Positions 3,231-34,200 of a stretch of DNA of 64,000 nt are shown one piece after another; position 1 is the stretch's first letter, and each line of letters starts with the position of its first letter. The DNA is from Isurus oxyrinchus (taxonomy: Eukaryota). Both the position numbers and the translations under genes were made by a program. Below the pieces are notes generated by a model. It did no database searches and was not told the origin of the DNA. It saw only the letters and a program-made list of their open reading frames with translations. Where the stretch lies: the NCBI GenBank assembly GCA_026770705.1, contig JANJGN010000189.1, positions 124,001 to 188,000 on the forward strand, given 5' to 3'.

Positions 3231-3286
3231 CTGGGGAGACAAATCTCAATATTTAACTCTGGATGGTTTGTGGATCCACTAGACTC

Positions 3287-4112: not shown

Positions 4113-4194
4113 CTACATTCTTACCATCTTAAAATATTAAAGCTGCAGAATAAACATGCAAGTGACTGACCCGCTCGACCCACCTTCCATCAGG

Positions 4195-5140
4195 GGCTGG
4201 AGGAGGTTACACAGATAGGGAGGTTTGTGGGGGCTGTAGGAGGTAACAGAGATAGGGAGGGCTGTAGATACTGGAGGAGGTTACGCAGATAGGGAGGGTG
4301 GTAGGACCTGGAGGAGGTTGCAGAGATAGGGAGGGCTGTAGGGATTTGAGTAGTTTATGGCGATGGGGAACATGTAGGGACTGGAGGAGGCTGCAAGAGC
4401 AGAGAGGGTTTTAGGGTCTGGAGGAGTTTACAGGGATAGGAAGAGTTGTAGGGGCTGGACGGATTGCAGAGGTAGGGAGGGTTGGAAAGGCTGGTGGAGG
4501 TTTCAGAGGTAGGGAAGGTTGCAGGGACTGGAGGAGTTTACAGAGATGGGGGAGTTTTTGGGGCAGGATGGGGTTACAGAGATAGGGAGGGTTGTAAGGG
4601 CAGGACGAGGTTACATAGATATGGAGTGTGGCTGGGGCTGAGGGAGGCTACAGAGATAGGGAGGGTTATAATGGCTGGAGTAGGTAACAGAGATAAAGGA
4701 AACTCTTAGGGACTGGAGGAGGTTACAGAGATAGGGAGGGTTGTAGTGGGCTGGAGGAGGTTACAGAAATATGAAGGGTTGTAAGAGTTGGACCAGCTTA
4801 CAGAGATAGGGAGAGGTATTCGGTCTGGAGGAGGTTGCAGAGATAGGGGAGGTTGTTAGGACTGGAGGAGGCTACAAATATCGCGAGGGTTATCGGGGCT
4901 TGAGGAGGTTAAAGAGATAGGGAGGGGTGTTGGGTCCGGAGGAGTTTGCAGTGATAGGAATGGTTTTCGGGATTGGAAGAGAGTACTGAGATAGGAGGGT
5001 TGTAGGGACTGGAGGAGTCTCCTGAGATAGGGAGGGCTGTAGGGACTGGAGGAGGCTCCTGAGATAGGGAGGGTTGTAGGGACTGGAGGAGGCTCCTGAG
5101 ATAGAGAGGGTTGTAGGGACTGGAGGAGGCTCCTGCGATA
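4195..5140. repeat. ~35-bp tandem repeat (ggaggaggttacagagatagggagggttgtagggact)
   Basis: Many degenerate tandem units; inverted copy at 29185-30025. Confidence 0.85.
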
Positions 5141-6165
5141 GGGAATGTTGCCATGGATGAAGATAAAGGAGGAGATTACTGTAATAGGGAGGAAAAATAT
5201 TCAAAAATTTGGACATTGAGACTTTGCTTGACCAGGAGCCAGTCTCGGTCATCGAGCAGAGCGGGTGATAAGGGAACGGGACTTGGTGTGAGTAAGGACG
5301 TGGTCAGCAGTTTTGGATGGCCTCAAGTTTATGGAGTGTAGAGCATGTGTTGGAACAGTCGAGTCTGGAGGTAATGAAGGCGTGGATGAGGGTTTCAGCA
5401 GCAGATGAGCTGAGACAGGGTGAAGTCGTACGACGTTATGGAGGTGGAAATAGACGGTGTTAGTGAGGGCGCAGATATGAGGCCGGAAGCTCATCTCAGG
5501 ATCAAATGGGACAACAAAGCTGTGAACAGATTGGCTTCAATCTCAGAGAGCTGTCAGGGAGAGGAATGGAATTGGTAGCGAGGGAACAGAGTTTGGAGCG
5601 GGGAATGAAGACAATGGCTTCAGTCTTTCCAATATTTAATTGGAGGGAATTTCTGCCCATCCAGTACTGGATGTTGGATAAGCAGCCTGATAATTTAGCA
5701 GCAGTGGAGGAGTCGAGAGAGGTGGTGGTGAGGTAGAGCTGGGGATCCTCAGTGGACAGGTGAAAACTAACACTGTTCAGATGATGCTGCAAAGCCATTG
5801 CAAGTGATTCTCTGGCTACGATGAGATGGATAAGAATGGAGCCAGGGGAGAGCAGTCCCACCCAGCTGGACGACAGTGGACAGGTGTTGGAGGAGGATGG
5901 TGTGGTCGAGCATGTCAAAGGCTGCAGACAGATCGAGAAGGACGAGGAGGGAAAGTTGACCTTTGTCACAGTCACATAGGATGCCATTTGTGACCTTGAT
6001 AAGAGCTGTTTCAGCACAGTGGCTGGGGTGGGAACCTGATTGGAGGGATTCAAACATGGAGTTCCGGGAAAGATGGGAACGGATTCGGGAGATGGAATCA
6101 CGTTCAAGGACTTTGGAGGGGAAAGAGAGGCTGGAGATGGGACGGGGGTTTACACGGACAGTGTG
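5141..6165 (-). mobile_element. L2-type LINE RT fragment (degenerate)
   Basis: ETALIKVTNGIL...LLVLLDLSAAFD; DPQLYL...CLSNIQYWMGRNSLQLNIGKTE. Confidence 0.85.
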
Positions 6166-6421
6166 AGGGGTGGAAGGTGTAGTGGGGAGGAGACACTTCA
6201 CTCAGGGGGGAGGTGTCATCACCCCTCAGCTCGGTTTACGTTACAGCTATGATGTGGATTCAATCACACACCATAAGCTCATGGATCTGGGAGCAGAAAT
6301 AGACAAATCATTAAAAATAGTGACGCTGGTTAACACGGCCAAAAAACAAGCAAATCAAACACTATTATTTCCCATTGAGTGTTGGATGTGAATTGGTGAG
6401 TAATTATAACACAGCACTTAC

Positions 6422-6799
6422 CAGAAACGTGAAGCTGGGTTACAGGGTAATAGTTATGGCTCGGACCATTGCCAAATTTTATCGTGAAAAAATAAGGTCC
6501 TGCATCTTCCCGTCTGATGTTGTTTATAATCAGGGAACAGTCGCCATCTTTCAGGTCTCCAGACAGCCGGGTCCGATGGTGGAACTGTGATAACTCGCGA
6601 CTGTGACCCTTGGAGTGAAAGGCTATAGACCATTTAGACCATTTGTTCCGTTTTAACCTTCTCATTTTCCAGATTCCGACCTGTGGTTTCTTTACCAAAT
6701 CTGATGGATAACTGTAATGACATGGAATCTGTACACACGAACCTTCCTGCGCTGTCACCTCTCGTGGAGTGTCACCTTTCCACTCTTGTGACAATCCAA
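6422..6799 (-). CDS. Siglec-like gene A, distal V-set Ig exon (essential Arg replaced by Thr)
   Basis: Acceptor ctccccag|, donor CTG|gtaagt, 378 nt, phase 1-1; GLSQEWKGDTP...CVQIPC...WKMRRLKRNKWSKWS...DAGPYFFTIKF. Confidence 0.9.
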
Positions 6800-7422
6800 C
6801 TGGGGAGAGAAATATCAATATTTAACTCTGGATGTTTTGTTGATCCACTAGACTCGATATCCACCCCCTCCATCACTGGGGCACAGTGGCTGCAGTGTGG
6901 ACCATCTACAGGACACACAATGAACTCCACAAGGTATCACACCAGATGGAAGAGAATCCTGGACACAAAAGCGGAAAAGTTCATTCTACATTGGTTCATG
7001 GTCCTCAGGACCCTGTTTGTGCAGAAGTCTGCTCTCCAACAGAACTGAAGTTGGGGACAATGCATTTGGAATTCCATTGTCCGGGGCATTGGGTTAACTT
7101 GCTGATTTTGTTTTAAATCTAACATCTATTTTTGGTCTGTTGCCTTTAAGGGACTGTAACTGGGAGTCAGGTTAATTAGGAATTTTAGGAGTTATGATAG
7201 CAGTCATTGTCGTTATGTATGTGCTTGAAATCTTTTATTTTGACGACAAATATGTTAATTTATTGTTTTAAATCTCTAAAGGTATTGGTGGATTTATTGC
7301 TTCTGAATTAAGTGCACACATCTCATAATAAATACAAATTGCAAAATCATTTTAATAGTGTGACCAGGTTTCTCTCAGGGACTTGGTCTGCCTGGCACAC
7401 ATCACCTGCCAAGTGATAACAC

Positions 7423-8717
7423 TGTTGTAATATGCCTTTCAGGGACAGCAGCATGACATCACTCGAGGGGAAGTGTGTCATGTGATTTTTAGGAACTGGT
7501 GTTCGCTTAAGTAAGTTCTATGTGTATTTGTGTGTGTTAGGCAAAAGGTCTATCTTCAAGTTCAAGTTTAGTTTGTATTTCTGTATTTGGGTGTTGAGAA
7601 AAGGGGGAACTTGAGTTAAAAAGAAGCCAGCATTCCATTGAGGTTTAATGACTGTTGAAGGGAAGTCAAAACAAATACAAGGTGTAAGAAACTGTGCTGT
7701 TGCCTAGCAACAGTGATCCAGAGGGAAGGACCCACAGAAACAGAAAAAAACAGAAAAGTACCTTCAGTTCTGTTGAAAGGAGTTGCCAGGAGAAGCAGCA
7801 AAGGATTGGGACAGATAGTCAGTCCCAAAGTAAAGAAGAAGCCAAAACTATAGAGTTTGACAGGAGAAAGGGCCCAAGAAAACCTTCTAGTCAAATCTGG
7901 AAAAGGCCCTGTTAAGTGAAGTTAAGAGTGAGGAGCAGAAGAAGGCTTCAAGCATAAAGGGAGAAAGCAGCAGGACACAGGCCTAAAGCAAACTAGGCTT
8001 GTGAGAAGCCAGAAGATCCTAGGAGACACCACAGGTTGGTGACTCATTACTACGGCCATGTGAAGCCATGGTGTTCCATTGACACGGCTGAGCATTGGAG
8101 AGACAGGGCGTGGAAGGAAGGCTGAATGCACGTGGCGATCCAGGGGACAGGAACATGGGAAGGAGAGTTTGAAATAGTGAAAGTGGACCCTTGTGGAAGG
8201 TGTCTGAGTGAAAGTGTCATGTTGGAGAAGATTCCAAAGTGAGTTCTTGGAGAGTGGAGATTGGAAACTCTCATATGAAAGAAGCTTTTCAGTGAGACTG
8301 GTTGGCTCACAGTGTAACAAGCGTCTGGGGACAGATGAGACATAGAATTTGTTTCAAGTGGGCTCTGCCACTTGCTTTCAGAATGTGGTGTCCCTGACCA
8401 CAGGTCGTCTATTGGTTTACACGGACTGTGTACTTAGTGTGAACATGAGAATATAAGATAGTTATCGTAATTTGTGTTCTACTTATGTATCTGTAAAGGT
8501 ATAGGTCTGGGTGAAGGAGTAATGTCATATAGTTTGTCTTTCCTAGTTTAATAAATGTTTTATTCTTTTGTTAGACGTTCATCAGATGACTCCTGTGACT
8601 CTGTTCAGTAGCCGCACTCCACATTCCTAAATAAAAAATAAAAGTTAGGACCTATCAAGCTGAGTTCCACCCTGGGATCTGACTTGCTCAGTAGTAACAT
8701 CAGCTGGGATGGTAACA
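7423..8717 (+). mobile_element. Solo LTR-like element
   Basis: Begins TGTTG, ends TAACA, internal AATAAA near 8549; inverted copy at ~25614-26908; no clean target-site duplication seen. Confidence 0.55.
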
Positions 8718-11100
8718 CCATCCAGTCCAAGTTTCACTTTGGCCTGTGAGCAGAACACAGCTCACACAGTTTGGCTGCAGGTGTCTCCCAGCTTTCTATC
8801 CTTGTATATCTGTTCTCATGTCCCTGTTCTAAATAACTGAACCCACAATGTATTTACCCAATTCCGTATCAGTGGCTGGTGCCTTTATATCATTATAAAA
8901 ACACAACATGGTGATCAGTGGTGGCCAAACATTCTGGCAGCAAGTTTCAGTACAGGTATGACGTGGTGAACAGCCTAAGATCGAGCTACATGACATGAGA
9001 CGACCCTCGACGCTTTGGTCAGACCACAACAGAGACACAGCATCAGAGAGGGTTGAAATCGCAGTGTACTGACTGCTCAGGAAACCTTTGAAGACACAGT
9101 GACGGGAAAGAGCTCAAGTAAAGAGCTGGGGAGCAGACGGATCCCTCGTGGTGAGATTACAGCACACGGCCTGTAGGACAGTGAGTGGGACAGTGTGTAT
9201 CGCCAGGACCAGCAGCGGGTTAGCTCAGTCAGGGAAGGCGAGTGACCAGGGTGTGGGCTGGATCGATAGTGAGCGAAGGAGAGTCAAACACACAAAAACC
9301 ATTATAAAAATCAGCCCAGAGAAGTTAGTGATTATAACGGGCAGCTTCGAGATTGCTGAACAGCAAATTGAATAAAAAACAAAGACTCCATTACTCCGTG
9401 GTGTGTTCCTGCCACAACCCGTCTTCATGGGCGGAGCTTCGGAAAAGCACGTGAAAGGGGCTAAAGCGACACTCATCCCAGGTCCTGTAGGAGAAGGAAG
9501 GTCAAAGGAATATTGTCAGAATATCCACGAAATTCCCCAGTTTGAACTGGGATGTAGCTGACCGACTATCTGAATTCAGAATGTTTAAACAGCGTACAGA
9601 GCTCTGGTTTCCTGATTCAGGTGTGACTGAACCAGACGAACAAGCCATAAAAATTCACCTCGCGATTGGGAATGAAGGTCTACACAGGCTGAGCACATCA
9701 GGATTAACAGCAGAAGAGCGAAAGGATCCCCAATAGATACGGACGATATTGGAAGACAGGTTCAGAATCAGGTGAAACTCCATATTCATCAACTAGAGTT
9801 TATGTCATTTCATCAGCCTACACAATCCATAGACCACTTCATCAGCCGATGTAGAGAAAAGGGTACGCACTGTGATTTCAAACACAGAGCCTGCAGACAG
9901 AGTTGTTGAGTTGGTGATTACATCCACTCCCATGGAAGCCTTCCAGAAAGATCTGCTAGATAAGACCAAAACCTATAGCATTGAAGAGCTACTCAAGGAT
10001 GGACATAAATACGAAGTGATCCTCGCAGGTCAACGAAGCTTACAGGTCCTCAGTACAACATCAATTGTTGACACACTCACTAGAACATCCAAACCTAGTG
10101 AGACGTGTGGAAGGTGTGGCCTTCTGCAGGCACCAAGGAAATGCCCAGCTTTCCACCAATCCTGCAAGGCTTGTGGCAGAAAGGGCCATTGACAGCGGCA
10201 GCGCACTAGAGCAAAGGCTGATGCAGCTACAAAGAGCTGTGCACTGATCCAAACAAACCCTACACAACGGGGAACTTTCAAGCAATAAGAATGACCATCC
10301 GCTATCCATCAGGAACATATAAATGTGGTGACTGACAAACCAGGAAATGGCGATGATGTACACGACGAGACTAGGAGCGGTGATCGATATTCCACCTCTC
10401 ACACATATCCTGACGTGGCTTGCCAATAAATTGTGGATTGTGGTCTTTATTGATCTCTCTGGGCACATCAAATTAACTGAAAATGTTCCCATAGGGGTGG
10501 GATTTTCTGGCCCCACCCACTTCCATGATTGTCCAGTCCGGCCGAAAGCCAATGGATTTATGTCTGTCCCATTCTCAGAAACTATCCCATCAGCTCAGTT
10601 CATGACATAACATTGAAATATGCAGAAAGATTCAACAATATTGGCAGGTTCAAGGGAGCTGCAACATTTCACCTGCAGGGGAATGCAAGTCTGTCAGACT
10701 CCTTGCATTAAAATTAATACAATCCAACTTTGCCACGCTATCTTGAGCCTTAAATGGCCAATAATTTCTATGCCTTCCAGTTTCATTTGCTCTCTCTTCT
10801 AATTTTGGCCGTGCATCTCTCTCTGTTGAACCTCCTCTCGGGATCCGATCCCCTGCCATATTAGTTTAAAGCCTCCTCAGTTGCATCAAGGGTGTAATGT
10901 CAATTGAAACCAGAGACAACATCGAAGAATGACAATCCCACAGATCAATGTGAGCAATTAAAGAAACCTCCAGACAATTTTGCCACCACAAGATCTTGAT
11001 ATAACAGCAGATTACCTCTACGCTTTAGAGACTCAAATATTCAACAGATCTATACACTTATATAATTGTCAAGAAATATGAAAATGATACCAGGAACCTC
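8718..11100 (+). mobile_element. Ty3/Gypsy LTR retrotransposon remnant (LTR end, PBS, gag; internally deleted)
   Basis: ...acacaaca followed by PBS-like TGGTGATCAG at 8909; gag-like FRMFKQRTELWF and zinc knuckle CKACGRKGH. Confidence 0.75.
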
Positions 11101-12356
11101 TTGTTCCCTGTCCTTCTCAAAGATCCATCCCTGCAGCAGGAGCCTGAAGAGTTACTGATGTGGGGCTTAATTTATCAGATTGTAGAATGATCTGGAAATG
11201 AAGGATGCCATTTGGCCCATCGAGCCTGTGCTGGGCCTTTGAAAGATCTGTCCAATTAGTCCCACTCTAACCTCTGCTCTCTCCTCCACAGCCCTGCAAA
11301 ATGTCCCCTTCAAGTATTTATCCAGTTCCTCTTCTGAAAGTTCCTGTTGAATCTGCTTCCACCGCCCTTTCAGGCAGTGAGTCAATGGTCTCTCTCTGAG
11401 CTGCAAAGTGATAAGTTTCAATGAAATATAAACTCTGCAGCAGATCAGAAACCATCATGATAACTCAGAATATTTGACAGTTTTACATACAGACAGCTTT
11501 GCCTCCCTTCTCTCTATCAGTTATCTTGCTCCCTTATCGAATTTTCTAGCATGGTGAGAAGGGACAGGAAGTGTGACGCTGAACTGCCTGTCTAATCTAA
11601 GAGCTTCTGTGTTGTCTTCATGGGAAATTCTGATGAAAATCAGCAAGAGTGAAAAATTTCAGGGCATTGATATCGGAGTGCTAGCATCAGGATAGACTTC
11701 ATCCCCCAGTTTTTATCCCTGCTTCTCTATTCAGCCGATCGCTCCCCTGTCACTCGCTGACCTACACTGGCTCCCAGTCCAGCAATAACTCAATTTTCAA
11801 AATCTCTTCATTGATTCCTTATCCCTCCATCCTCCCTCTCCACTCCCTATCACTGTCACTTCCTCCAGCCCTGAAACCCTTTGAGGTCTCTGCTGTCCTC
11901 CAATTCTGCTGTCAGACAGGGAGTCAGTGTATATCAGTGAGCACAGGGGTGATGGGTGAATGGGACTTGGTGTGAGTTTGTACACTGGCTCACTGCTGAA
12001 CCGGTTCCCTATCAGAGCTCACTGCAGGAAGTGCGAGGGCTGGACTCTCTGTCTATTCTCACTGCAGCTGTGATGTGGTCGTGGTGATTCTCAGTAAAAT
12101 GAAACCCTCTGAGCTCCTCCATCCCCGAGGTTTAGGGAGTGAATTCCAGAGCTCAGGACCCAGGCAGCTGAAGGCCCGGCCGCCAGTATTGGAGTGATGG
12201 GAATCGGGGGATGGTCAAGAGGCCGGAATTGCAGTAACACAGAGATCTGGGAAGTTGTTTGGGTGAGTTGCAGGAGGTTACAGAGATAAAGAGATAAGAA
12301 TGATCTTTTACAAAGACTATTAGCCATAAGTCTGTCCAAGCTGACGATGATATTAC

Positions 12357-12396
12357 CTTGGAGAAGTGACAGGAGGAAGTAAGATTTCCCGATCAC
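12357..12396 (-). CDS. Siglec-like gene A leader (signal peptide) coding part, begins with GTG
   Basis: GTG ATC GGG...CTC CAA G|gtaata = (V/M)IGKSYFLLSLLQ, phase 1, matching the V exons; exon acceptor tttcacag| at 12437. Confidence 0.75.
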
Positions 12397-12846
12397 TGTC
12401 CACTCCCAGATATTCCATCCACTTCTCACTCTCAAGCTGTGAAAGAGAAAGGAGTTAATGAGACCTCACCGCTTGTCCGACAGCTCTCGAGAGATCAGAA
12501 CTGCTTTTAGACAATGTCTTCACAGACTAATTTGATTCTCTGTGGGATGATAGGTGCTCTGCAGAGAGTTACAAGTCTTTAAGTAAGACAAACAATGATT
12601 GATTTGCATTTCTATAGCACCTTTCACTATCTCAGGACATCCCAAATCTCATGTCCCTGCACTTCCCTCATCCATTGAGCTAGAAAGATGTTCTGTACAA
12701 CAGACTTGAGTCTCACACCCAGAATTCAATAATCAGTAAAAATCTTTCAAAGGCATCAATCATTGGAATCTGTCTTTATAAAGTCACAACATCAACAAAG
12801 GACGGTGTTGGTGGTGGAAGTGAATTCCAATCATTCCGTTACTTAC

Positions 12847-12990
12847 CCAGGACCTGTCCGACTGCTTGCCTGGGGAGGAACTGCCCACACGCTCTGCTTG
12901 GGCTGAATGACCTCTTCCTGTGCTGCTCCCTATTTGTGTTTAATTAAAAAGGGTGCATGTGTCACTGTGAGTCAAAATGAGGAAGTGCTT
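12847..12990 (-). promoter_or_regulatory. Putative promoter and non-coding first exon of gene A
   Basis: Strong donor CTGG|gtaagt at 12847; PU.1/ETS-like aaaatGAGGAAGTg at ~12974-12987; AP-1 TGAGTCA at 12968-12974. Confidence 0.5.
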
Positions 12991-15788: not shown

Positions 15789-15905
15789 TTATAAATTCCC
15801 ATAAACAGAATCCTCGGCAAAATCACAGTTTGCGTAAAGATCATCATCTGTATCAGGATTGACTCCGCGGTTAGATTTCATTTCCAGATCCTTCTCATCT
15901 TTCTT
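15789..15905 (-). pseudogene. Orphan terminal cytoplasmic-tail exon of an immune receptor
   Basis: Acceptor tttctgtttctattacag|; KKDEKDLEMKSNRGVNPDTDDDLYANCDFAEDSVYGNL*, with two acidic-flanked YxN tyrosine motifs; no upstream TM exon found on this strand nearby. Confidence 0.65.
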
Positions 15906-16014
15906 CTGTAATAGAAACAGAAATGATCAGAGTGACAATCAGAGTGATCAGTGTTTAGTATTATTGATCCAAATCGAAAATTCCACCCACAATACATACA
16001 TTAATTATTGATAC

Positions 16015-19899: not shown

Positions 19900-20049
19900 C
19901 TTTGATCCAACTTCCTCATTTTGTCTCACAGTGACACATCAACCCTTTCTCATTAAATACACAGAGGCAGCAGCACAGGAAGAGGTCATTCAGCCCAAGC
20001 AGAGCGTGTGGGCAGTTCCTCCCCAGGCAAGCAGTCGGACAGGTCCTGG
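19900..20049 (+). promoter_or_regulatory. Putative promoter and non-coding first exon of gene B
   Basis: ACTTCCTCatttt ETS/PU.1-like site at 19910; donor CTGG|gtaagt at 20049; mirror of 12847-12990. Confidence 0.5.
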
Positions 20050-20499
20050 GTAAGTAACGGAATGATTGGAATTCACTTCCACCACCAACACCGTCCTTTG
20101 TTGATGTTGTGACTTTATAAAAACAGATTCCAATGATTGATGCCTTTGAAAGATTTCTACTGATTATTGTGATCTGGGTGTGAGGCTCAAGTCTGTTGTA
20201 CAGAACATCTTTCTAGCTCAAGGGATGAGGGAAGTGCAGAGACATGAGCTTTGGGACATCCTGAGGTGGTGAAAGGCGATATAGAAATGCAAGTCCTTCA
20301 TTGATCTATTTTTTTAAAGCTTTTTAACTCTCTGCAGAGCACCTATCATCCCACAGAGAACCAAATTAGTCTGTGTAGACAATGTCTAAAAGCAGTTCTG
20401 ATCTCTCGAGAGCTGTCGGACAAGAGGTGAAGTCTCATTAACTCCTTTCTCTTTCACAGTTTGAGAGTCAGAAGCTAAAGGAATATCTGGGAGTGGACA

Positions 20500-20539
20500 G
20501 TGATCGGGAAATCTTACTTCCTCCTGTCACTTCTCCAAG
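20500..20539 (+). CDS. Siglec-like gene B leader coding part, begins with GTG
   Basis: GTG ATC GGG AAA TCT TAC TTC CTC CTG TCA CTT CTC CAA G|gtaata; acceptor tttcacag| at 20459. Confidence 0.75.
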
Positions 20540-21519
20540 GTAATATCATCGTCAGCTTGGACAGACTTATGGCTAATAGTCTTTGTAAAAGATCATTCTT
20601 ATTGAGCTCTGATAGGGAACCGGTTCAGCAGTGAGCCAGTGTACAAACTCACACCAAGTCCCATTCACCCATCACCCCTGTGCTCACTGATATACACTGA
20701 CTCCCTGTCTGACAGCAGAATTGGAGGACAGCAGAGACCTCAAAGGGTTTCAGGGCTGGAGGAAGTGACAGTGATAGGGAGTGGAGAGGGAGGATGGAGG
20801 GATAAGGAATCAATGAAGAGATTTTGAAAATTGAGTTATTGCTGGACTGGGAGCCAGTGTAGGTCAGCGAGTGACAGGGGAGCGATCGGCTGAATAGAGA
20901 AGCAGGGATAAAAACTGGGGGATGAAGTCTATCCTGATGCTAGCACTCCGATATCAATGCCCTGAAATTTTTCTCTCTTGCTGATTTTCATCAGAATTTC
21001 CCATGAAGACAACACAGAAGCTCTTAGATTAGACAGGCAGTTCAGCGTCACACTTCCTGTCCCTTCTCACCATGCTAGAAAATTCGATAAGGGAGCAAGA
21101 TAACTGATAGAGAGAAGGGAGGCAAAGCTGTCTGTATGTAAAACTGTCAAATATTCTGAGTTATCATGATGGTTTCTGATCTGCTGCAGAGTTTATATTT
21201 CATTGAAACTTATCACTTTGCAGCTCAGAGAGAGACCATTGACTCACTGCCTGAAAGGGCGGTGGAAGCAGATTCAACAGGAATTTTCAGAAGAGGAACT
21301 GGATAAATACTTGAAGGGGACATTTTGCAGGGCTGTGGGGGAGAGAGCAGAGGGGAGAGTGGGAATAATTGGACAGATCTTTCAAAGGCCCAGCACAGGC
21401 TCGATGGGCCAAATGGCTTCCTTCTGTTCCAGATCATTCGACAATCCGATAAATTAAGTCCCTTTTCAATAACTCTTCAGGCTCCTGCTGCAGGAATGGA
21501 TCTTTGAGAAGGACAGGGA

Positions 21520-24500
21520 GCAAGCGGTTTCTCATATCATGTTCATATTTATTGACAATTACATAAGTGTACGGAACTGTTGAATATTTGAGTCTCTAAA
21601 GTGTGGATTTGACCTTCTGGTACACCCAGATCTTATGCTGGTTACCTTGTCTGGAGGTGTCTTTAACTGCTCACAGTGATCTGTGGGATTGTCACCCTTG
21701 GATGTTGTTCCTGATTTCATGTGGGATCTTCTCCTCGATGGAATAGGAGCAGGAATGGATCTGATTTATCCTCGGTTCCGCCTCACCGCTGTGCCCTTGT
21801 GTGTTTGACTCCATAGGCCCTTGGTTCTGAACAAATCCTTGTCACCTCGGCTGGTGGTCATGAACCTTCTGTGGGATCCTGGATGTGAACTTGTCCCAAC
21901 TGTAAACTTGGCAACTCTGCACCATAATTTTGATCATGAACATTCCTTATCTTCTCTTGTAGTTTTAAAAGTTGCGCTCTGGTTTCTGAGAGAGTAGAAT
22001 GGGTAAGAATAGCGAAATTGGTCACTACTGGCCCACCAAACATGCTCTCTGTCAGTGATGGAATAAGGTGAGGTGATGGTGTAGTGGTATTGTTGCTGGA
22101 TGAGTAATTCAGAGACCCAGGGTAATGTCCTGAGCATATGGGTTCAAATCCTGCCATAATTGATGATGGAATTTGAAATAAATAAAAAGATGAAATTCAA
22201 AGTCCAGTGATGACCACAAAACGATTGTTGGAAATCCGACCTGGTTCACCAGTGCCCTTTAGGGAACAAAATTGTCTGGCCGACATGTGACTCCACACTC
22301 CACGTCAATGTGGTTGATTCTTACATTAGGGATGGGTAATAAATCCTGGCCTGGCCAGTGACTCCCACATCCCGTGAATGAATTTAACAAAGTTGCAGTT
22401 GTAGGTGTCGATCTCAGATGTAACATTGCAATGTGTGGATCTTGCTTGGCCTGTCTACATTTGAGAATTAGGGATTTCACTGTGTGAATCATTCATTCAG
22501 CTAGGCTGTTAGATCTGGGGTAATGAGGAGAAGAAGTAGTGTGATTGATATTCCAGATTATCTGTAATCATGTCCCTAGGCTCACCAAATAAACTGAAAA
22601 TAGTGCTTAGAGTGTAAGCAGCAGTTGTGCTCGGTGTGTTGTGCTATTTTTGAATAACGGGATATCTGGTAAAGCTGTCGACGACGATGAAGTCAGTGAC
22701 ATGGACATGAAAGGATTCAGATGTGATTTTGGACTAAGAATGGGCAGGAATTTCCTGTGGAATCAGTGGTTCTTTGTGTTGACTTGGCTCATCCTCTTGA
22801 CAAGCCTCGAACTTCCCTACAATGACTTCAAGGTCATTGTTTATACCCGGCCAGGGACTGTATCTCTTGGGAGTCTCCTTGTCTGATCTGTGCCCATGTG
22901 TGAAGGATGAAGTTGTTGAAGAATATATCATCACAAAGGTTCTGGTATGATGCGATGCCTGCCATTAAAAATGACTCCCTGGGAGATGCCTCGCTTATCC
23001 CGATGACATCAAGTTGAATCAGGCCACCCTTTCAATGATATTTCCACATTTCCTGTAGAATTTTTCACTGTCCCCTCTTGTAGATGCTGGCATTTCTGTT
23101 GTGCTAAATGTACTGGATCAATTGACAGACTTGCATTCTCCTGCAGGTGTAATGTTGCAGCTCCCTTGAAACTGCAAATACTGTTGAAACTTTCTGCATA
23201 TTTCAATGTTATGTCCATGAACTGAGTTGATGGGGTAGTTTCTGAGGTTGACCCATGTGAGGTCTGACAGATTCCATGGATTGTCACTAGTGTGAGGTCA
23301 CCGCATGCCGGTAGACTTGCAATTGCTCAGCCTTTAGTCTCCACGATGTAGAACATCTGTGACACCCAGGAGGATTGATTGTACTTGCACCCCAGGACTA
23401 TGTATTCCGCACATGGAGTTGGTGAAGTGTTGTACACAGCAGTAGGTTTCCCCATGGACTTCCATGTCCTTGGATACATGTCTTTGAAAATTTGCTGGGG
23501 TGGTCGGGGGGAGGGGAATGTTGGCACTTGCCCTTGTGTCAATCTTGGCCAATAAAGGAGAGGTAGCAACTTTCTCAGGGCAGATAATTGGAATCTTGGC
23601 CAATAGTGCGGGTGATGTGACGGCATCTGTTCTCCATTAGATTGATGGTGTAAAAGGTGTGAAATTGTTCAACAATTGCACAAAACGTTGAGCACAAATG
23701 TTGCACAAACTCTAGGCCGGGGTTTTCCGGCCCAGTCATGGTGGGACCTGCCTGGGAGATAGGGACAAATATAAATCCATTGGCTTTTGGCCGGACCGGG
23801 CAATCCTGGCAGTGGGTGGGGCCAGAAAATCCCACCCCATTGGGACATTTTCAGTTTATTTGATGTGCCCAGAGAGATCATTAAGGACAACAATCCACAA
23901 TTTATTGGCAAGCCACGTCAGGATATGTGTGAGAGGTGGAATATCGATCACCGCTCCTCGTCTCACCATGTACATCATCGCCATTTCCTGGTTTGTCAGT
24001 CACCACATGTATATGTTCCTGATGGGATAGCGGATGGTCATTCTTATTGATTGAAGGTTCCCCGTTGTGTAGGGTCTGTTTGGATCAGCGCACGGCTCTT
24101 TGTAGCTGCATCAGCCTTTGCACTAGTGCCCTGCCACTGTCAATGGCCCTTTCTGCCACAAGCCTTGCAGGATTGGTGGAAAGCTGGGCATTTCCTTGGT
24201 GCCTGCAGAAGGCCACACCTTCCACACGTCTCACTAGGTTTGGATGTTCTAGTGAGTGTGTCAACAACTTATGTTGTACTGAGGACCTGTAATCTTCGTT
24301 GACCTGCGAGGATCACTTCGTATTTATGTCCATCCTTGAGTAGCTCTTCAATGCTATAGGTTTTGGTCTTATCTAGCAGATCTTTCTGGAAGGCTTCCAT
24401 GGGAGTGGATGCGATCACCAACTCAACAACTGTGTCTGCAGGCTCTGTGTTTGAAATCACAGTGCGTACCCTTTTCTCTACATCGGCTGATGAAGTGGTC

Positions 24501-25613
24501 TATGGATTGTGTAGGCTGATGAAATGACATAAACTCTAATTGATGAATATGGAGTTTCACCTGATTCTGAACCTGTCTTCCAATGTCGTCCATATCTATT
24601 GGGGATCCTTTCGCTCTTCTGCTGTTAATCCTGACGTGTTCAGCCTGTGTAGACCTTCATTCCCAATCGTGAGGTGAATTTTTATGGGTGGTTCGTCTGG
24701 TTCAGTCACACCTGAATCAGGAAACCAGAGCTCTGTACGCTGTTTAAACATTCTGAATTCAGATAGTCGGTCAGCTACATCCCAGTTCAAACTGGGGAAT
24801 TTTGTGGACATTCTGACAATATTCCTTTGACCTTCCTTCTCCTACAGGATCTGGGATGAGTGTCGCTTTAGCCCCTTTTGTGTGCTTTTCCGAAGCTCCG
24901 CCCACGGAGACGGGTTGTGGCAGGAACACACCACGGAGTAATGGAGTCTTTGTTTTTTATTCAATTTGCTGTTCAGCAATCTCGAAGCCGCCCGTTATAA
25001 TCACTAACTTCTCTGGGCTGATTTTTATAATGGTTTTTGTGTGTTTGACTCTCCCTCGCTCACTATCGATCCAGCCCACACTCTGGTCACTCGCCTTCCC
25101 TGACTGAGCTAACCCGCTGCTGGTCCTGGCGATACACACTGTCCCACTCACTGACCTACAGGCCGTGTGCTGTAATCTCACCACGAGGGATCCGTCTGCT
25201 CCCCAGCTCTTTACTTGAGCTCTTTCCCGTCACTGTGTCTTCAAAGGTTTCCTGAGCAGTCAGTACACTGCAATTTCAACCCTCTCTGATGCTGTGTCTC
25301 TGTTGTGGTCTGACCAAAGCGTCGAGGGTCGTCTCATGTCATGTAGCTCGATCTAAGGCTGTTCACCACGTCATACCTGTACTGAATCTTGCTGCCAGAA
25401 TGTTTGGCCACCGCTGATCACCATGTTGTGTTTTTATAATGATATAAAGGCACCAACCACTGATACGGAATTGGGTAAATACATTGTGGGTTCAGTTATT
25501 TAGAATAGGGACATAAGAACAGATATACAAGGATAGAAAGCTGGGAGACACCTGCGGCCAAACTGTGTGAGCTGTGTTCTGCTCACAGGCCAAAGTGAAA
25601 CTTGGACTGGATG
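21520..25613 (-). mobile_element. Ty3/Gypsy retrotransposon remnant (longer counterpart of 8718-11100)
   Basis: Same gag and zinc knuckle, plus protease-like KIDTRASAN and integrase-like DPHIAMLHLRSTP segments. Confidence 0.8.
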
Positions 25614-27530
25614 GTGTTACCATCCCAGCTGATGTTACTACTGGGCAAGTCAGATCCCAGGGTGGAACTCAGCTTGATAGGTCCTAACTTTTATTTTTTA
25701 TTTAGGAATGTGGAGTGCGGCTACTGAACAGAGTCACAGGAGTCATCTGATGAACTTCTAACAAAAGAATAAAACATTTATTAAACTAGGAAAGACAAAC
25801 TATATGACATTACTGATTCACCCAGATCTATCCCTTTAAAGATTCATAAGTAGAACACAAGTTACTGTAACTATCTTATACTCTCATGTTCACACTAAGT
25901 ACACAGTCGATGTAAACCAATAGACGACCTGTGGTCAGGGATGCCACATTCTGAAAGCAAGTGGCAGAGCGCACTTGAAACAAATTCTATGTCTCATTTG
26001 TCCCCAGACGCTTGTTACACTGTGAGCCAACCAGTCTCACTGAAAAGCTTCTTTCATATGAGAGTTTCCAATCTCCACTCTCCAAGAACTCACTTTGGAG
26101 TCTCCTCCAACATGACACTTTCACTCAGACACCTTCCACAAGGGTCCACTTTCACTATTTCAAACTCTCCTTCCCATGTTCCTGCCCCCTGGATCGCCAC
26201 GTGCATTCAGCCTTCCTTCCACGCCCTGTCTCTCCAATGCTCAGCCGTGTCAATGGAACACCATGGCTTCACATGGCCGTAGTAATGAGTCACCAACCTG
26301 TGGTGTCTCCCAGGATCTTCTGGCTTCTCGCAAGCCTATTTTGCTTTAGGCCTGTGTCCTGCTGCTTTCTCCCTTTATGCTTGAAGCCTTCTTCTGCTCC
26401 TCACTCTTAACTTCACTTAACAGGGCCTTTTCCAGATTTGACTAGAAGGTTTTCTTGGGCCCTTTCTCCTGTCAAACTCTATAGTTTTGGCTTCTTCTTT
26501 ACTTTGGGACTGACTATCTGTCCCGCTCCTTTGCTGCTTCTCCTGGCAACTCCTTTCAACAGAACAGAAAGTACTTTTCTGTTTTTCTCTCTCTCTGTGA
26601 GTCCTACCCTCTGCATCACTGTTGCTAGGCAACAGCACAGTTTCTTACACCTTGTATTTGTTTTGACTTCCCTTCAACAGTCATTAAACCTCAATGGAAT
26701 GCTGGCTTCTTTTTAACACAAGTTCACCCTTTTCTCAACACCCAAATACAGAAATACAAACTAAACTTGAACTTAAAGATAGACCTTTTGCCTAATGCAC
26801 ACAAATACACATAGAACTTACTTAAGCGAACACCAGTTCCTAAAAATCACATGACACACTTCCCCTCGAGTGATGTCATGCTGCTGTCCCTGAAAGGCAT
26901 ATTACAACAGTGTTATCACTTGGCAGGTGATGTGTGCCAGGCAGACCAAGTCCTTGAGAGAAACCTGGTCACACTATCATAATGATTTTGCAATTTGTAT
27001 TTATTATGAGATGTGTGCACTTAATTCAGAAGCAATAACTCCCCCATACCTTTAGAGATTTAAAACAATAAATTAACATATTTGTCATCAAAATAAAAGA
27101 TTTCAAGCACATACATAACTACAATTACTGCTATCATAACACCTAAAATTCCTAATTAACCTGACTCCCAGTCACACTCCCTTTAAGGCAACAGACCAAA
27201 AATAAATGTTGGATTTAAAACAAAATCAGCAAGTTAACCCAATGCCCCGGACAGTGGAATTCCAAATGCATTGTCCCCAACTTCAGTTCTGTTGGAGAAC
27301 AGGCTTCTGCACAAACAGGGTCCTGAGGACCATGAACCAATGTAGAATGAACTTTTCCGCTTTTGTGTCCAGGATTCTCTTCCATCCGGTGTGAAACCTT
27401 GTGGGGTTCATTGTGTGTCCTGTAGATGGTCCACACTGCAGCCACTGTGCCCCAGTGATGGAGGGGGTGGATATCGAGTCTAGTGGATCAACAAAACATC
27501 CAGATTAAATATTGATATTTCTCTCCCCAG

Positions 27531-27908
27531 TTGGATTGTCACAAGAGTGGAAAGGTGACACTCCACGAGAGGTGACAGCGCAGGAAGGTTCGTGTGTACA
27601 GATTCCATGTCATTACAGTTATCCATCAGATTTGGTAAAGAAACCACAGGTCGGAATCTGGAAAATGAGAAGATACATACGGAACAAATGGTCTAAATGG
27701 TCTATAGCCTTTCACTCCAAGGGTCACAGTCGCGAGTTATCACAGTTCCACCATCGGACCCGGCTGTCTGGAGACCTGAAAGATGGCGACTGTTCCCTGA
27801 TTATAAACAACATCAGATGGGAAGATGCAGGACCTTATTTTTTCACGATAAAATTTGGCAATCGTCCGAGCCATAACTATTACCCTGAAACCCAGCTTCA
27901 CGTTTCTG
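27531..27908 (+). CDS. Siglec-like gene B, first V-set exon (Arg to Thr)
   Basis: ctccccag|TTGGA...TTTCTG|gtaagt, 378 nt; ...WKMRRYIRNKWSKWS...DAGPYFFTIKF. Confidence 0.88.
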
Positions 27909-28164
27909 GTAAGTGCTGTGTTATAATTACTCAACAATTCACATCCAACACTCAATGGGAAATAATAGTGTTTGATTTGCTTGTTTTTTGGCCGTGTTAA
28001 CCAGCGTCACTATTTTTAATGATTTGCCTATTTCTGCTCCCAGATCCATGAGCTTATTGTGTGTGATTGAATCCACATCATAGCTGTAACGTAAACCGAG
28101 CTGAGGGGTGATGACACCTCCCACCTGAGTGAAGTATCTCCTCCTCACTACACCTTCCACCCCT

Positions 28165-29184
28165 CACACTGCCTGTGTAATCTCCCGTCCCATCTCCAGC
28201 CTCTCTTTCCCCTCCAAAGTCCTTGAACGTGTTTCCATCTCCCGAATCCGTTCCCATCTTTCCCGGAACTCCATGTTTGAATCCCTCCAATCAGGTTCCC
28301 ACCCCAGCCACTGTGCTGAAACAGCTCTTATCAAGGTCACAAATGGCATCCTGTGTGACTGTGACAAAGGTCAACTTTCCCTCCTCGTCCTTCTCGATCT
28401 GTCTGCAGCCTTTGACATGCTCGACCACACCATCCTCCTCCAACACCTCTCCACTGTCGTCCAGCTGGGTGGGACTGCTCTCCCCTGGCTCCATTCTTAT
28501 CCATCTCATCGTAGCCAGAGAATCACTTGCAATGGCTTTGCAGCATCATCTGAACAGTGTTAGTTTTCACCTGTCCACTGAGGATCCCCAGCTCTACCTC
28601 ACCACCACCTCTCTCGACTCCTCCACTGCTGCTAAATTATCAGGCTGCTTATCCGACATCCAGTACTGGATGGGCAGAAATTCCCTCCAATTAAATATTG
28701 GAAAGACTGAAGCCATTGTCTTCATTCCCCACTCCAAACTCTGTTCCCTCGCTACCAACTCCATTCCTCTCCCTGGCAGCTCTCTGAGATTGAAGCCAAT
28801 CTGTTCACAGCTTTGTTGTCCCATTTGATCCTGAGATGAGCTTCCGGCCTCCATTTTGCGCCCTCACTAACACCGTCTATTTCCACCTCCGTAACATCGC
28901 ATGACATCACCCTGTCTCAGCTCATCTGCTGCTGAAACCGTCATCCACGCCTTCATTACCTCCAGACTCGACTGTTCCAACACACGCTCTACACTCCATA
29001 AACTTGAGGCCATCCAAAACTGCTGACCACGTCCTTACTCACACCTAGTCCCGTTCCCTTATCATCCGCTCTGCTCGATGACCGAGACTGGCTCCTGGTC
29101 AAGCAAAGTCTCAATGTCCAAATTTTTGAATATTGTTCCTCCCTATTACAGTAATCTCCTCCTTTATTTTCATCCACGGCAACA
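28165..29184 (+). mobile_element. L2-type LINE RT fragment
   Basis: Inverted copy of 5141-6165; LLDLSAAFD motif. Confidence 0.85.
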
Positions 29185-30104
29185 TTCCCTATCTCAGGAG
29201 CCTCCTCCAGTCCCTACAACCCTCCCTATCTCAGGAGCCTCCTCCAGTCCCTACAACCCTCCCTATCTCAGGAGACTCCTCCAGTCCCTACAACCCTCCT
29301 ATCTCAGTACCCTCTTCCAATCCCGAAAACCATTCCTATCACTGCAAACTCCTCTGGACCCAACACCCCTCCCTATCTCTTTAACCTCCTCAAGCCCCGA
29401 TAACCCTCGCGATATTTGTAGCCTCCTCCAGTCCTAACAACCTCCCCTATCTCTGCAACCTCCTCCAGACCGAATACCTCTCCCTATCTCTGTAAGCTGG
29501 TCCATCTCTTACAACCCATTATATTTCTGTAACCTCCTCCAGCCCACTACAACCCTCCCTATCTCTGTAACCTCCTCCAGTCCCTAAGAGTTTCCTTTAT
29601 CTCTGTAACCTCCTCCAGCCATTATAACCCTCCCTATCTCTGTAGCCTCCCTCAGCCCCAGCCACACTCCATATCTATCTAACCTCGTCCTGCCCCTACA
29701 AACCTCCCTATTTCTGTAACCCCATCCTGCCCCAAAAACTCCCCCATCTCTGTAAACTCCTCCAGTCCCTGCAACCTTCCCTACCTCTGGAACCTCCACC
29801 AGCCTTTCCAACCCTCCCTACCTCTGCAATCCGTCCAGCCCCTACAACTCTTCCTATCCCTGTAAACTCCTCCTGCCCCTAAAACCTTCTCTGCCCTTGC
29901 AGCCTCCTCCAGTCCCTACACGTTCCCCATCTCCATAAACTCCTCAAATCCCTATAGCCCTCCCTATCTCTGTTACCTCCTCCAGCCCCCACAAACCTCC
30001 CTATCTGTGTAACCTCCTCCAGCCCCAGATGGAAGGTGGGTCGAGCGGGTCAGTCACTTGCATGTTTATTCTGCAGCTTTAATATTTTAAGATGGTAAGA
30101 ATGT

Positions 30105-30930
30105 AGGAACATAAGAAATAGGGACAGGAGCAGGCCATTCGGCCCCTCCAGCCTGCTCTACTGATCTGGTTGTGGCCTTAACTCCATTTTCCTGCCTGTT
30201 CCCCAAACCCTTGACTCCCTTGTCGATCAAAAACCTGCCTCACTCAGCCTTGAGTCTATTCAATGGCCCAGCCTCCACTGCTGTCTGGGGAAGAGAATTC
30301 CACAGGCTAGCGCCCCTCTGAGAGAGGAAATTCCTCCTCATCTCAGTCTTGAATGGGAGAGCCCTCATTCCGAAACTGTGCTCCCTGGTTCTAGATTCCC
30401 CCACGAGGGGGAAACATCCTCCCAGCATCCACCCTGTCAAGCCCCCTCGGAATCGGATATGTTTCTATAAGGTCACCCCTCATTCTTCTAAACTCCAATG
30501 GATACAGGCCCAACCTGCTCAACATTTCCTCACAGGACAAACCCTTTAATCCCAGGAATCAGCCCAGTGAACCTCCTCTGAACTGCCTTCAATGCAGAGT
30601 CTATCCCTCCCTAAGTAAGGAGACCAGAACTGTACACACTGCTCCTGATATAATCTCACCCTGTGCAGCTGTTGCAAGACTTCCCTCCTTTTATACTCCA
30701 TCCCTTTGCAATAAAGGCCAACGTTCCACTTGCCTTCCTCATTCCGTGGTGTTCCTGAATGCTGACTTTCTGTGATTCATGTACAAGGACACCCAGATCC
30801 CTCTGTACTGCATTCAGCAGCCTCTCTCCATTTAAATAATATCCTGTTTTTCTATTCTTCCTGCCAAAATAATTTGTTGTAGTCCTCCTCAGTATTGACC
30901 ATCCCCCCAATTCAGCCTCATCTGTAAATT
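30105..30930 (-). mobile_element. CR1-type LINE 3' fragment
   Basis: Inverted copy of 3287-4112. Confidence 0.85.
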
Positions 30931-30987
30931 TGAGTCTAGTGGATCCACAAACCATCCAGAGTTAAATATTGAGATTTCTCTCCCCAG

Positions 30988-31356
30988 TTGAACCCTCACA
31001 AGAGTGGAACGGTGACACTCCACGAGAGGTGACAGCGCAGGAAGGTTCGTGTGTACAGATTCCTTGTCATTACAGTTATCCATCGTGTCTGGAAAACCAA
31101 CCGCGAGGTGGACTCTGGTTTAATAATGAGAAACAGATTCCCTGGGCTCCCATTGCCTTTCACTCCAAGGATCACAGTCACGAGTTACCACGGTTCCACC
31201 ATCGGACCTGGCTGTCTGGAAACCTGAAAGATGGCGACTGTTCCCTGATTATAAACAACATCAGACGGGAAGATGCAGGACCTTATTTTTTCAGGATAGA
31301 ATTTGACAATGGTCCGAGCCATAACTATTACCCTGTAACCCAGCTTCACGTTTCTG
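30988..31356 (+). CDS. Siglec-like gene B, second V-set exon (essential Arg present)
   Basis: ctccccag|TTGAA...TTTCTG|gtaagt, 369 nt; DAGPYFFRIEF. Confidence 0.88.
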
Positions 31357-32169
31357 GTAAGTGCTGTGTTATAATTACTCAACAATTCACATTCAACACT
31401 CAATGGGAAATAACGCAAACTGTGACGTTTACATATTAACACAAAACACAGCTTATTATAGCACACTGTCTGATTCTCAATAACCTGGTGATAGCTTCCA
31501 GTTCAGTCCTAAAGCAACCTCTAATACTCATTTTAATATCAATGATTAAAAGTATTGACTGTGTCCATCAATGTTATCAGGTTATCCACTCCCATCGATC
31601 TCCCTAACCCTGTTTGACAGTTTTCCATATCGACAAAAGAAAGATTCGCATTTCTATAGCGCCTTTCAACACCTCTGTACGTTGCAAATGGTTTCACAAC
31701 CAATGAAATAATTCTTGAAATGTTGCCCTTGTTGTAATATGGGACACACAGCAGCCAATTTATTCACAGGAAGCTCCCAGAAACAGCAATGTGATCAATA
31801 ACCTGATCATCTGTTTTAGATGCCGGTTCAGTGATTGGTTCAAATGGATTCTCTCCTGCTGGGAACAGGATAGAATTTAAATCTGGCAGATTTCAGAGAA
31901 AGTAACAAGCCAGTGTGTCAGGAACTGTGAGCTGCTCCCCCACCCTCACCTGGGATTGTCAGTTCAATTGTCTCAAAGTGGAAGTGAATTCATCTGAGAG
32001 ACAGAAAATCCACTAAGTCTGAAAATAGGAAATTCTCTCCTGATCGTTGTAATCTCTCAGTTCTGATATCATCCTTGTAAAAGTGCTTTCTCTTGTGGGA
32101 CTGTGGTTTCTATTTGAACTGATGTTTCACGTTATATTTCTCCAAAAGGATCCATTCTCTGTCTGTTAG

Positions 32170-32466
32170 ATTTCACAGATAAACCCATGATATTCCCTGC
32201 TGAAATTATTGCAGGAAAGCGTATGGATGTAAGCTGCACCTTCAACACAACGTGCAATGGAACAGCAGCACCTGTCTTAACCTGGGACACTGCCACTGAT
32301 GTACCTGGATCAGTCTCAAACACTGTAACTCAGCATGGTGTCACTCTGACCTATACTTCTGTTCTGACCCTGATCCCATCACTCCAACACCACGGACACA
32401 CTCTCAGCTGCAGAGTGAGATATCCATCTGTTTCATCGGAGCGGACCCTCATACTAACTGTGTAAG
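32170..32466 (+). CDS. Siglec-like gene B, first C-set Ig exon with in-frame TAA at its last full codon
   Basis: ctgttag|ATTTC; DFTDKPMIFPAEIIAGKRMDVSCTFNTTCNGTAAPVLTW...LSCRV...LILTV*; TAA at 32463-32465 directly precedes G|gtaagt. Confidence 0.85.
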
Positions 32467-32789: not shown

Positions 32790-32942
32790 GACATCTGAAT
32801 ATCACAATGAACAGAACAAGTTCCAACAATGAGCTGTGGTTGGTGATTCCTCACGTTACATCCAGGGACACTGGAGACTATCAGTGTGTGGCAGAGAATG
32901 AACATGGAGCAGTGGAGGGGTTCATAACCATCACTGTGGAAC
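32790..32942 (+). pseudogene. 5'-truncated C2-set Ig exon of gene B
   Basis: HLNITMNRTSSNNELWLVIPHVTSRDTGDYQCVAENEHGAVEGFITITVE then |gtgagt; the first half and acceptor seen in the 62362/63410 exons are absent. Confidence 0.85.
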
Positions 32943-34060
32943 GTGAGTGTACACAGACTTCAACAGCTCTCTCAGATTCAAACACTACACAAACACAGAC
33001 AATTATACAAACCTAAATAGACACGTGCAGACACACAATCCCACATGTATGAGCACACAAAAGGACACACTCACAAACAAACACACTAACACATTCTCCC
33101 CCGTGGGTTACCTGACCTCCCTCAGTGCTGCACCGGAGAGTTGACATGGATTCTGGGAGTTGTATTCCCTTTCAAGTTTATGGAAGAATGCGGAAATTGC
33201 AAAGTCTATTAGACACCCAGATGCACAGAGATTCTCACAGATACTCTCTGCCTCTCTAACTCTCTATCCTCCTTTAAAAAGCTTCCTGAAATCTAACCCT
33301 TTGACCAGTCACCTGTCCCAACTCCTCCTTATGTAATTCTGTGTGAAATGTTGTTTGAGTATCTGACAGTAAGAGAGAGATGGAGAGGTTTACGAAGGAA
33401 TTTCTGTTGGTGAAAAGCTTACATCATGTTCTCACCTTTCCAGAGCCCATTTTGCACATGATGTCCAATGTCCAAGTTCATAATGGGGATTGCCTATGTA
33501 AACGTCACGCTGTAGTTATACTCTCCCACCAGTGGTGGCACGGTAGCACTTAACCCTTGCATCTCCTAGCTTTTCAAGCAATTTCCCATCCTAATTTGCT
33601 ACTATTCACCTCGACCACTTCCTGTGGGAGCGAGTTCCACATTCTCCTCTCTCTCTGGGTAAAGATTGGAACTGTTTATTAAGCGGGGGTTGTAAGTCCG
33701 TGGGGGAGTCCATCTCGATCCTGCCCGATTCGCACACACGTCCGAGATGGATTTCCACCCTGCACTAAACGTTTCCAGAATTTTCTACAGCACAATCCTG
33801 TACACAGCGATGGAGAGAAACATTGGACAGGGAGTCCAACAGCACAATGATCCATTCTCACCAATGTTCCACGCTAAGGGGAAAGTTCCGATTGTCCACT
33901 CTTCGAGTGTTTACAATGAAAACATTCATTCCACATTGAATCCCAGTGGATGGGTCAATATTACAGCAAATGTTGCAGTGATATGAAGCTTGATTGTTCA
34001 GCCAGAGTGAGAGATTGAAAGCAGAGAGTCAGTGATGATTTCTTTCTGTGTGCTCTCTAG

Positions 34061-34200
34061 ACAGTGGAGGAGAGATTCTGCATGTGATCCTGATCCTGGG
34101 AATACGAGCTGTGATATTCCTTGTGGCTGTGGTTATCACTATCGCTGGAGTCTGTGTCTGGGAGAGACAAACAGTGAAAGGAAGTCGACAGACTGTTTGA
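34061..34200 (+). CDS. Siglec-like gene B transmembrane exon with intramembrane Arg and short tail (activating type)
   Basis: tgctctctag| phase 1; SGGEILHVILILGIRAVIFLVAVVITIAGVCVWERQTVKGSRQTV*. Confidence 0.8.

Follow-up and report, generated by a model that had tools for sequence, protein, structure and literature searches.

Two immunoglobulin V-set exons behind a single leader exon raise the question of whether they serve as alternatives or are joined in one transcript. We addressed this question for a Siglec-type gene in a stretch of 64,000 nucleotides (nt) of Isurus oxyrinchus (contig JANJGN010000189.1, positions 124,001 to 188,000 of the forward strand; the whole stretch is called the window, and coordinates without a contig name refer to it). 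The gene lies on the plus strand and has an inverted sister, and we call the two the plus and the minus arm. The original prediction for this locus held that the two exons, V1 and V2, could be spliced either in tandem or mutually exclusively, and proposed a splice-level switch of ligand specificity in which the basic variant might bind other polyanions. Our analysis argues for a different use: V1 and V2 are probably spliced in series, so that an outer basic domain without the essential F-strand arginine (Arg) would be tied by a predicted disulfide to an inner domain that bears it, in a copy that is itself probably defective.

The predicted structure of the two exons was confirmed. Both V1 and V2 are open, have phase 1-1 and a length that is a multiple of three, are preceded by AG and followed by GTAAGT, and lie in a common block (27476-27965 and 30932-31413; 87.5% identity over 496 columns) that reaches 55 nt upstream and 57 nt downstream of the exons and corresponds to the shared cassette of about 490 bp described earlier. 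The motifs also agreed, with KMRRYIRNKWSKWS and YFFTIK in V1 and FNNEKQIPWAP and YFFRIE in V2. At the site of the essential Arg, V1 has threonine (Thr; ACG, 27845), as the predicted loss of this Arg implied, and V2 has Arg (AGG, 31293), which aligns in its YFFR motif with the YFFR of Siglec-7 and Siglec-5; judged by this Siglec hallmark, the outermost domain does not qualify and the inner one does. The net charge is +6 for V1 and -5 for V2. The exons also differ in the B-C loop, where V1 has aspartate (27629) and V2 cysteine (Cys; 31086), a difference absent from the original prediction; the codons of the inter-domain Cys lie at 27593 and 31050. Both exons show the Siglec V-set pattern of a B-E intra-sheet Cys pair (QIPC, DGDC) with no F-strand Cys. 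V2 matched Siglec-7, -5 and -8, sialoadhesin, CD33 and MAG in sequence, with Siglec-7 and -5 as the best (E 1e-13), and the V-domain fold matched sialoadhesin (Z 17.3, root-mean-square deviation [rmsd] 2.0 A over 115 residues), all of which upholds the assignment to Siglec-type V domains. The nearest proteins to V2 were those of Carcharodon (up to 96%) and Cetorhinus (up to 90%), and shark V exons were far closer to one another than to primate domains by sequence comparison.

The gene belongs to a family of several hundred shark Siglec units, in which the type of a V exon is related to its position. An unselected survey of 800 kb on contig C52 and 264 kb on the contig that holds the window (C189) yielded 40 units, and 39 further Thr loci were added by design, for a total of 79 gene units with 156 V exons. 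All 46 exons with YFFTIK lie directly after a leader and before another V exon; 43 are intact, two have stops and one has a dead donor. Likewise, the basic-type exons were first of two or more V exons in 59 of 59 cases (46 of them fetched by design), and 17 of 19 basic V domains of other sharks are followed by another V. An EPS, KPS or QPS start was observed in 63 of 77 later exons and in none of 79 first exons, and 13 of the later exons have a GLS start. The B-C-loop Cys, seven residues after the B-strand Cys, was present in 27/28 later versus 1/40 first exons of the unselected survey and in 75/77 versus 1/79 of all fetched DNA, the lone first exon that carries it sitting behind an ATA leader. 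Among GLS-start exons with an IP(W) loop, this Cys was found in 8/9 later and 1/10 first exons, and among exons with an EE(W/R) loop in 16/16 and 0/3. The rule thus holds within one loop type and one start, even though the parts on either side have been shuffled. Among gene models from other sharks and rays, the B-C Cys occurred in 38 of 51 domains after a V, 3 of 68 after a leader and 5 of 23 unplaced ones (14 Cetorhinus isoforms were left out of this count). On a tree of 105 distinct intact V exons, which is only a rough guide given its unsettled bootstrap values and gene conversion, five changes of position label are needed, of which branches with good support require three, and the later exons enclose a group of exons that lack the Cys and are mostly first.

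The position of the extra Cys suggested a structural role. In CD33, C36 of the V domain is reported to be bonded to C169 of the C2 domain, with stray oligomers when C36 is free (PMC6669322), and the inter-domain bond of MAG is given as C37-C165 (PMC5150538). The corresponding Cys of the shark V domain (EGSC, five residues before the B-strand Cys) is kept in 155 of 156 V exons, and the shark C2 motif CTFNTTC aligns with CSVSWAC of CD33, placing the partner six residues after the B-strand Cys; both cysteines of the Siglec bond are therefore in place at the sequence level, the bond itself being predicted. The extra Cys of later V exons sits where C2 carries its disulfide partner, which suggests that V1 and V2 are parts of the same chain. 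We propose that the transcript would run leader-V1-V2-C2-transmembrane (TM), in which the V1 Cys, whose partner in one-V Siglecs is C2, would pair with the B-C-loop Cys of V2, and the equivalent Cys of V2 with C2. The B-C Cys would then likely rigidify V-on-V stacking. Skipping of V1 may occur as a minor isoform, and ligand variety would come from gene duplication and loop-module shuffling among hundreds of genes rather than from exon choice.

The structural models were consistent with this arrangement. Taken as a single unit, a predicted V1-V2 pair of Cetorhinus (P0018) fitted Siglec V-C2 pairs with an rmsd of 4.0-5.7 A across some 200 residues (Siglec-10, 4.0-4.3 A over 207-208 residues; MAG, 4.9-5.2 A; one listed MAG chain, 5lfu, 20 A). 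Fab heavy chains gave 12.7-14 A, and Dpr4 and JAML gave 8.8-9.0 A. This geometry is compatible with the predicted disulfide. An AlphaFold model of the three domains of P0125 (predicted template modelling score [pTM] 0.46) searched with Foldseek confirmed the Siglec folds and not the orientation of the domains.

Several observations weigh against splicing in series with a disulfide between V1 and V2. The V exons are kin, so that Fisher p-values for the position rule overstate the case. The B-C Cys is missing from 13 of the 51 after-V domains in models of other elasmobranchs and from all 12 later V domains in eight non-elasmobranch proteins; the latter were found among the best 150 matches, in which tandem-V models outside elasmobranchs came from frogs, a turtle, a teleost and primates. 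Tandem V domains thus do not need this Cys. The bond is a prediction, and the pTM of the V1-V2 pair was 0.43. First and later V exons do not differ in their acceptor or donor, so nothing in the sites forbids skipping. In four NCBI models (P0116, P0118, P0122 and P0126) the leader is joined to a V of the Cys type, and 2 of the 19 basic domains of other sharks are joined straight to C2 (P0115 and P0094). The Thr exons show no purifying signal, as described below. Finally, contigs of 4 of 22 listed runs from two studies, whose RNA status was guessed (word share 0.24-0.37), gave no V1-V2 joint among the best 15 of 343 joints, and no V1-C2 or leader-V2 joint either; this is not evidence of absence. 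The same 15 included family-level joints from leader to V (20537>27529, GT..AG) in three of the four runs, from V to C2 in three runs of one sample and from C2 to TM (32464>34059) in one run (X2). The runs derive from relatives of the plus-arm copy and do not tell the isoforms apart; at positions 27732 and 32463 they carry the alternative letter alone.

Four-V models of rays (P0011, P0014, P0133 and P0134) formed a separate case, in which Arg-type and Lys-type domains alternate and the second and fourth V lack the B-C Cys but have one within the C-C' region (KDEC), which may offer a different means of pairing the spare cysteine.

The alternative that survived best treats V1 as a regulated cassette: a long form would carry the basic Arg-less cap, and a short leader-V2-C2 form would expose the Arg domain, giving a one-sided switch of specificity. 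The matching phase, length and splice sites of the two exons would permit it, as would the GLS start, that of first exons, in 13 later exons; moreover, Carcharodon XP_041037226-30 are modelled three ways, as V1-V2-C2 (P0013), with entry inside V1 (P0114) and as leader-V2-C2 (P0116). However, skipping would strand the B-C Cys of V2 without its proposed partner, and the EPS, KPS or QPS start of most later exons was never observed behind a leader among the 79 first exons of this genome. We consider regulated skipping unlikely.

A second alternative concerns the outer domain itself. In MAG, the ligand is reported to be bound by R118, by the C-C' loop and by the F and G strands (PMC5150538), which makes the earlier premise sound that the Arg and the C-C' loop matter for glycan binding, and the Thr-type V1 has probably lost the standard mode of sialic acid binding. 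The net charge ranges from +4 to +10 in 43 Thr exons and from -6 to -1 in 75 later exons. Treating the basic loop and the Arg loss as one package was rejected, as 11 of 13 other basic V1 exons in the genome keep Arg; the description of V1 as an Arg-less basic variant fits V1 itself but does not define one unit, since the basic loop mostly occurs with Arg elsewhere. The 19 basic V domains of Carcharodon and Cetorhinus have Arg (17) or lysine (Lys; 2), and none has Thr. The Thr is always accompanied by Lys two residues on (TIK), and RIK occurs in both other species; thus, the Lys likely preceded the Thr and, in what amounts to one event, may have shifted the positive charge to another point of the strand. 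The Thr form, a young subfamily within the older basic V1 type, is found on two different C-C' loops and is joined to all three TM types (8, 6 and 3 of the 17 genes reached).

The Thr-type V1 could, under this second alternative, be a decaying or inert spacer that lost its ligand site once and was multiplied passively with segmental duplications, a history compatible with tandem splicing. The original prediction had proposed dN/dS by region, and Nei-Gojobori counts over 24 distinct Thr exons (representing 38 of the 43 intact ones, those of 378 nt; power is low and transition bias is ignored) gave 38 nonsynonymous and 8 synonymous variants, with a nonsynonymous-to-synonymous ratio (pN/pS) of 1.3-2.0 that did not differ from neutrality (p=0.59), so that no purifying signal was seen. 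By comparison, first-position FNN-type exons showed purifying selection (p=0.003), and later exons were borderline (p=0.054). Near-neutral change, the two nonsense lesions and one donor lesion, the absence of Thr from the basic domains of the two other lamniforms and the many identical copies (32 distinct among 46) speak for a spacer. By region, however, the changes are concentrated in the ligand-facing F-G/G region (9 nonsynonymous versus 1 synonymous); moreover, 43 exons are intact and free of frameshifts, the young age of the clade (pS 0.018) leaves the test without power, and the basic type is old and always first. A passive spacer appears quite improbable. Going beyond serial splicing, we tentatively consider that the Siglec ectodomains of sharks are disulfide-stapled V stacks, assembled within a cluster of several hundred genes from modules specialised by position, and that the outer domain of the 46-copy subfamily is a non-sialic sensor. 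Here Arg would have become Thr, while a Lys two residues on along the same strand face and the basic, tryptophan-rich loop would create a new site for an anion or a protein. The result would be a bispecific receptor on activating and inhibitory tails, in which skipping of V1 would uncap the sialic-acid site. This wider proposal is rather doubtful as a whole.

Strict mutual exclusivity was examined through the four mechanisms listed in PMC6071210, namely a short intron, a U2/U12 mismatch, a frameshift followed by decay, and docking-selector pairing. The V1-V2 intron has 3079 nt, both exons have GT-AG introns with AG/GTAAGT, and 378 plus 369 nt keep the frame on joint inclusion, so that none of the first three applies. 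For docking, the four shared flanks tried paired with neighbouring introns no better than shuffles (best case, 5 of 40 shuffles as low), and blastn with the shared flanks found no shared complement. Although tandem duplicated exons of similar length with conserved flanks of 55 nt, the statement in PMC6071210 that tandem duplication often gives exclusive exons, and the two models joining a basic V to C2 could favour the proposed switch, it is very unlikely, because these mechanisms were absent or, for docking in the shared flanks, undetected, multi-V NCBI models string the V exons together in series, and exclusive use gives no reason for the fixed order (46/46), the position-bound Cys and the EPS, KPS or QPS starts confined to later exons.

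Returning to the serial arrangement, the exon order of the plus arm is leader, V1, V2, C2, a relic half exon and TM (table 1).

Table 1. Features of the plus-arm gene and of its inverted sister
Feature	Position	Strand	Description
Leader exon	20460-20539	+	coding part 20500-20539 = (V)IGKSYFLLSLLQ, GTG at 20500
V1 exon	27531-27908	+	378 nt; first-position V-set, basic C-C' loop, Thr, no B-C Cys
V1-V2 intron	27909-30987	+	3079 nt, GT-AG; contains repeat-derived sequence and a 37-nt tandem array
V2 exon	30988-31356	+	369 nt; later-position V-set, EPS start, Arg kept, extra B-C-loop Cys
C2-set exon	32170-32466	+	Siglec partner Cys at B-strand Cys +6; TAA at 32463-32465
Relic 3' half of second C2-type exon	32790-32943	+	5' part gone
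TM exon	34061-34200	+	intramembrane Arg (LILGIRAVIFL), short tail, no tyrosine motif
Sister-gene leader, coding part	12357-12396	-	also GTG
Sister-gene V1 exon	6799-6422	-	basic, Thr; 371/378 nt identical to plus-arm V1
Sister-gene V2 exon	3230-2862	-	Cys, Arg; 360/369 nt identical to plus-arm V2

Two lesions absent from the original prediction were observed in this copy. The first codon of the leader is GTG, whereas 58 of 61 surveyed leaders begin with ATG and the whole genome contains four GTG leaders; an in-frame stop lies a few codons upstream within the same exon. The C2 exon closes with TAA, one base ahead of the donor; the usual codon of the family is CAA, present at 48 of 53 surveyed exon ends, and TAA was counted at three of these ends and three times in the whole genome. 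The TM exon is present, yet the TAA at 32463 precedes it; with the GTG start, this makes the plus-arm copy probably a defective family member. At most, a weakly made, secreted V1-V2-C2 protein from the GTG start would be possible, as predicted from the sequence. The same TM exon type, which would be of the activating kind, terminates the Carcharodon models P0022, P0024 and P0125, and the relic half exon is common in genes with this TM type and is skipped in RNA. About 400 nt before the leader of each arm (19957-20088 and 12808-12927) lies a segment that matches an exon for the cytoplasmic tail of one inhibitory type (SSTGRGHSAQAERVG...). The segment is also found upstream of most leaders in G000:C52 and C189 and apparently acts as a non-coding exon at the 5' end, so that a tail exon seems to be reused at the front of the genes.

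In each arm, one leader exon serves both V exons, and the minus-arm pair contains the motif KMRRLKRNKWSKWS. The inverted duplication (2419-12986 versus 19910-31799; 93-98% identity in blocks) spans the promoter, the leader and both V exons and ends 443 nt past V2, leaving the signalling exons outside. Downstream of the minus-arm V2 lie masked bases, and just past the start of the window are an inhibitory-type TM exon and tyrosine-motif tail exons (G000:C189:123057-123155 and 117406-120577). The two arms thus place near-identical ligand domains on activating and inhibitory modules, as paired receptors do, and to judge by their lesions they look like a paired receptor in decay. Between the arms, an isolated tyrosine-motif tail exon (DDDLYANC...VYGNL; 15792-15908, minus strand) was observed without an attached gene.

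The size of the cluster was estimated with exact sequence patterns, which undercount, while assembly duplicates may overcount: genome-wide there were 565 matches for V donors, 469 for C2 acceptors, 211 for leaders, 247 for Cys-type V exons and 46 for YFFTIK exons, and none for the controls. V1 has identical copies at four places and V2 at five. The unselected survey gave one V exon in 18 of 40 units, two in 19 and three, four and five in one each, with V-V introns of about 813-4130 nt (n=77) in all fetched DNA. Longer rows also occur: seven Cys-type V exons spaced by about 2 kb at G000:C52:2282421-2294509 suggest a gene with eight or so V domains, and the Cetorhinus model P0001 has seven. The number of further immunoglobulin exons per gene varies from 0 to 11 across the cluster; the highest number, eleven near-identical ones after one V and one C2, belongs to a minus-strand inhibitory-type Siglec gene that runs from 59195-64000 of the window into G000:C189:188001-202583. 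A recurrent broken single-V type with an LKG(R/I)DGNP loop on an Arg-TM exon (C189:313539 and C52:142885, 396989, 461861, 510654 and 655952), several members of which lack C2, is a dead sub-lineage that is still duplicating.

Taken together, these results indicate a large modular innate-receptor repertoire in cartilaginous fish. The single copy in the window matters less, being probably defective, and the family offers a direct test of glycan binding by inner V domains and of new ligands for Arg-less outer domains. Our literature search, which did not reach subscription journals, found no account of a shark Siglec cluster, the one mention being that of Siglecs, once, in a whale shark paper, and it found nothing on the ligands of Arg-less basic Siglecs.

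Among known systems, CD33-related Siglecs, MAG and sialoadhesin share the Cys pattern, the F-strand Arg and the fold, but have a single V domain and an inter-domain bond between V and C2 only. In the paired Siglecs 5/14 and 11/16, gene conversion is described as preserving the likeness of ectodomains that are nearly identical but sit on signalling modules of opposite kind (PMC6288428, PMC13358205). The shark arms similarly share V exons at 98% and combine an Arg-TM without a tail with a TM and tyrosine-motif tail; however, both arms have GTG, the activating arm has a stop, and the presence of Thr-V1 on three TM types indicates a mix-and-match family rather than one pair. In Dscam1 and FGFR2 IIIb/IIIc, too, exons for Ig domains are duplicated in tandem and diverge in their ligand loops, whereas the shark exons are specialised by position, and none of the four mechanisms given in PMC6071210 was found, docking having been sought in the shared flanks. 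The likeness to Siglec-12 drawn in the original prediction was borne out: two N-terminal V-set domains precede C2, the outer V has lost Arg, and null copies segregate (PMC7876704, PMC6288428, as far as these accounts go). The differences are that Rhinopithecus Siglec-12 (P0236) has no B-C Cys in V2, that both V domains of human Siglec-XII are described as Arg-less where the shark V2 keeps its Arg, and that the shark layout recurs in many genes with two to five V exons; orthology is not implied. A paper from 2020 names Siglec-12 alone as having two V-set domains (PMC7876704), and 22 of the 40 surveyed shark gene units have two to five. In sum, the two exons are real and probably belong to a position-specialised tandem-V Siglec, probably disulfide-linked, in a very large shark cluster with a young subfamily of Arg-less outer domains; the closest known counterpart is Siglec-12.

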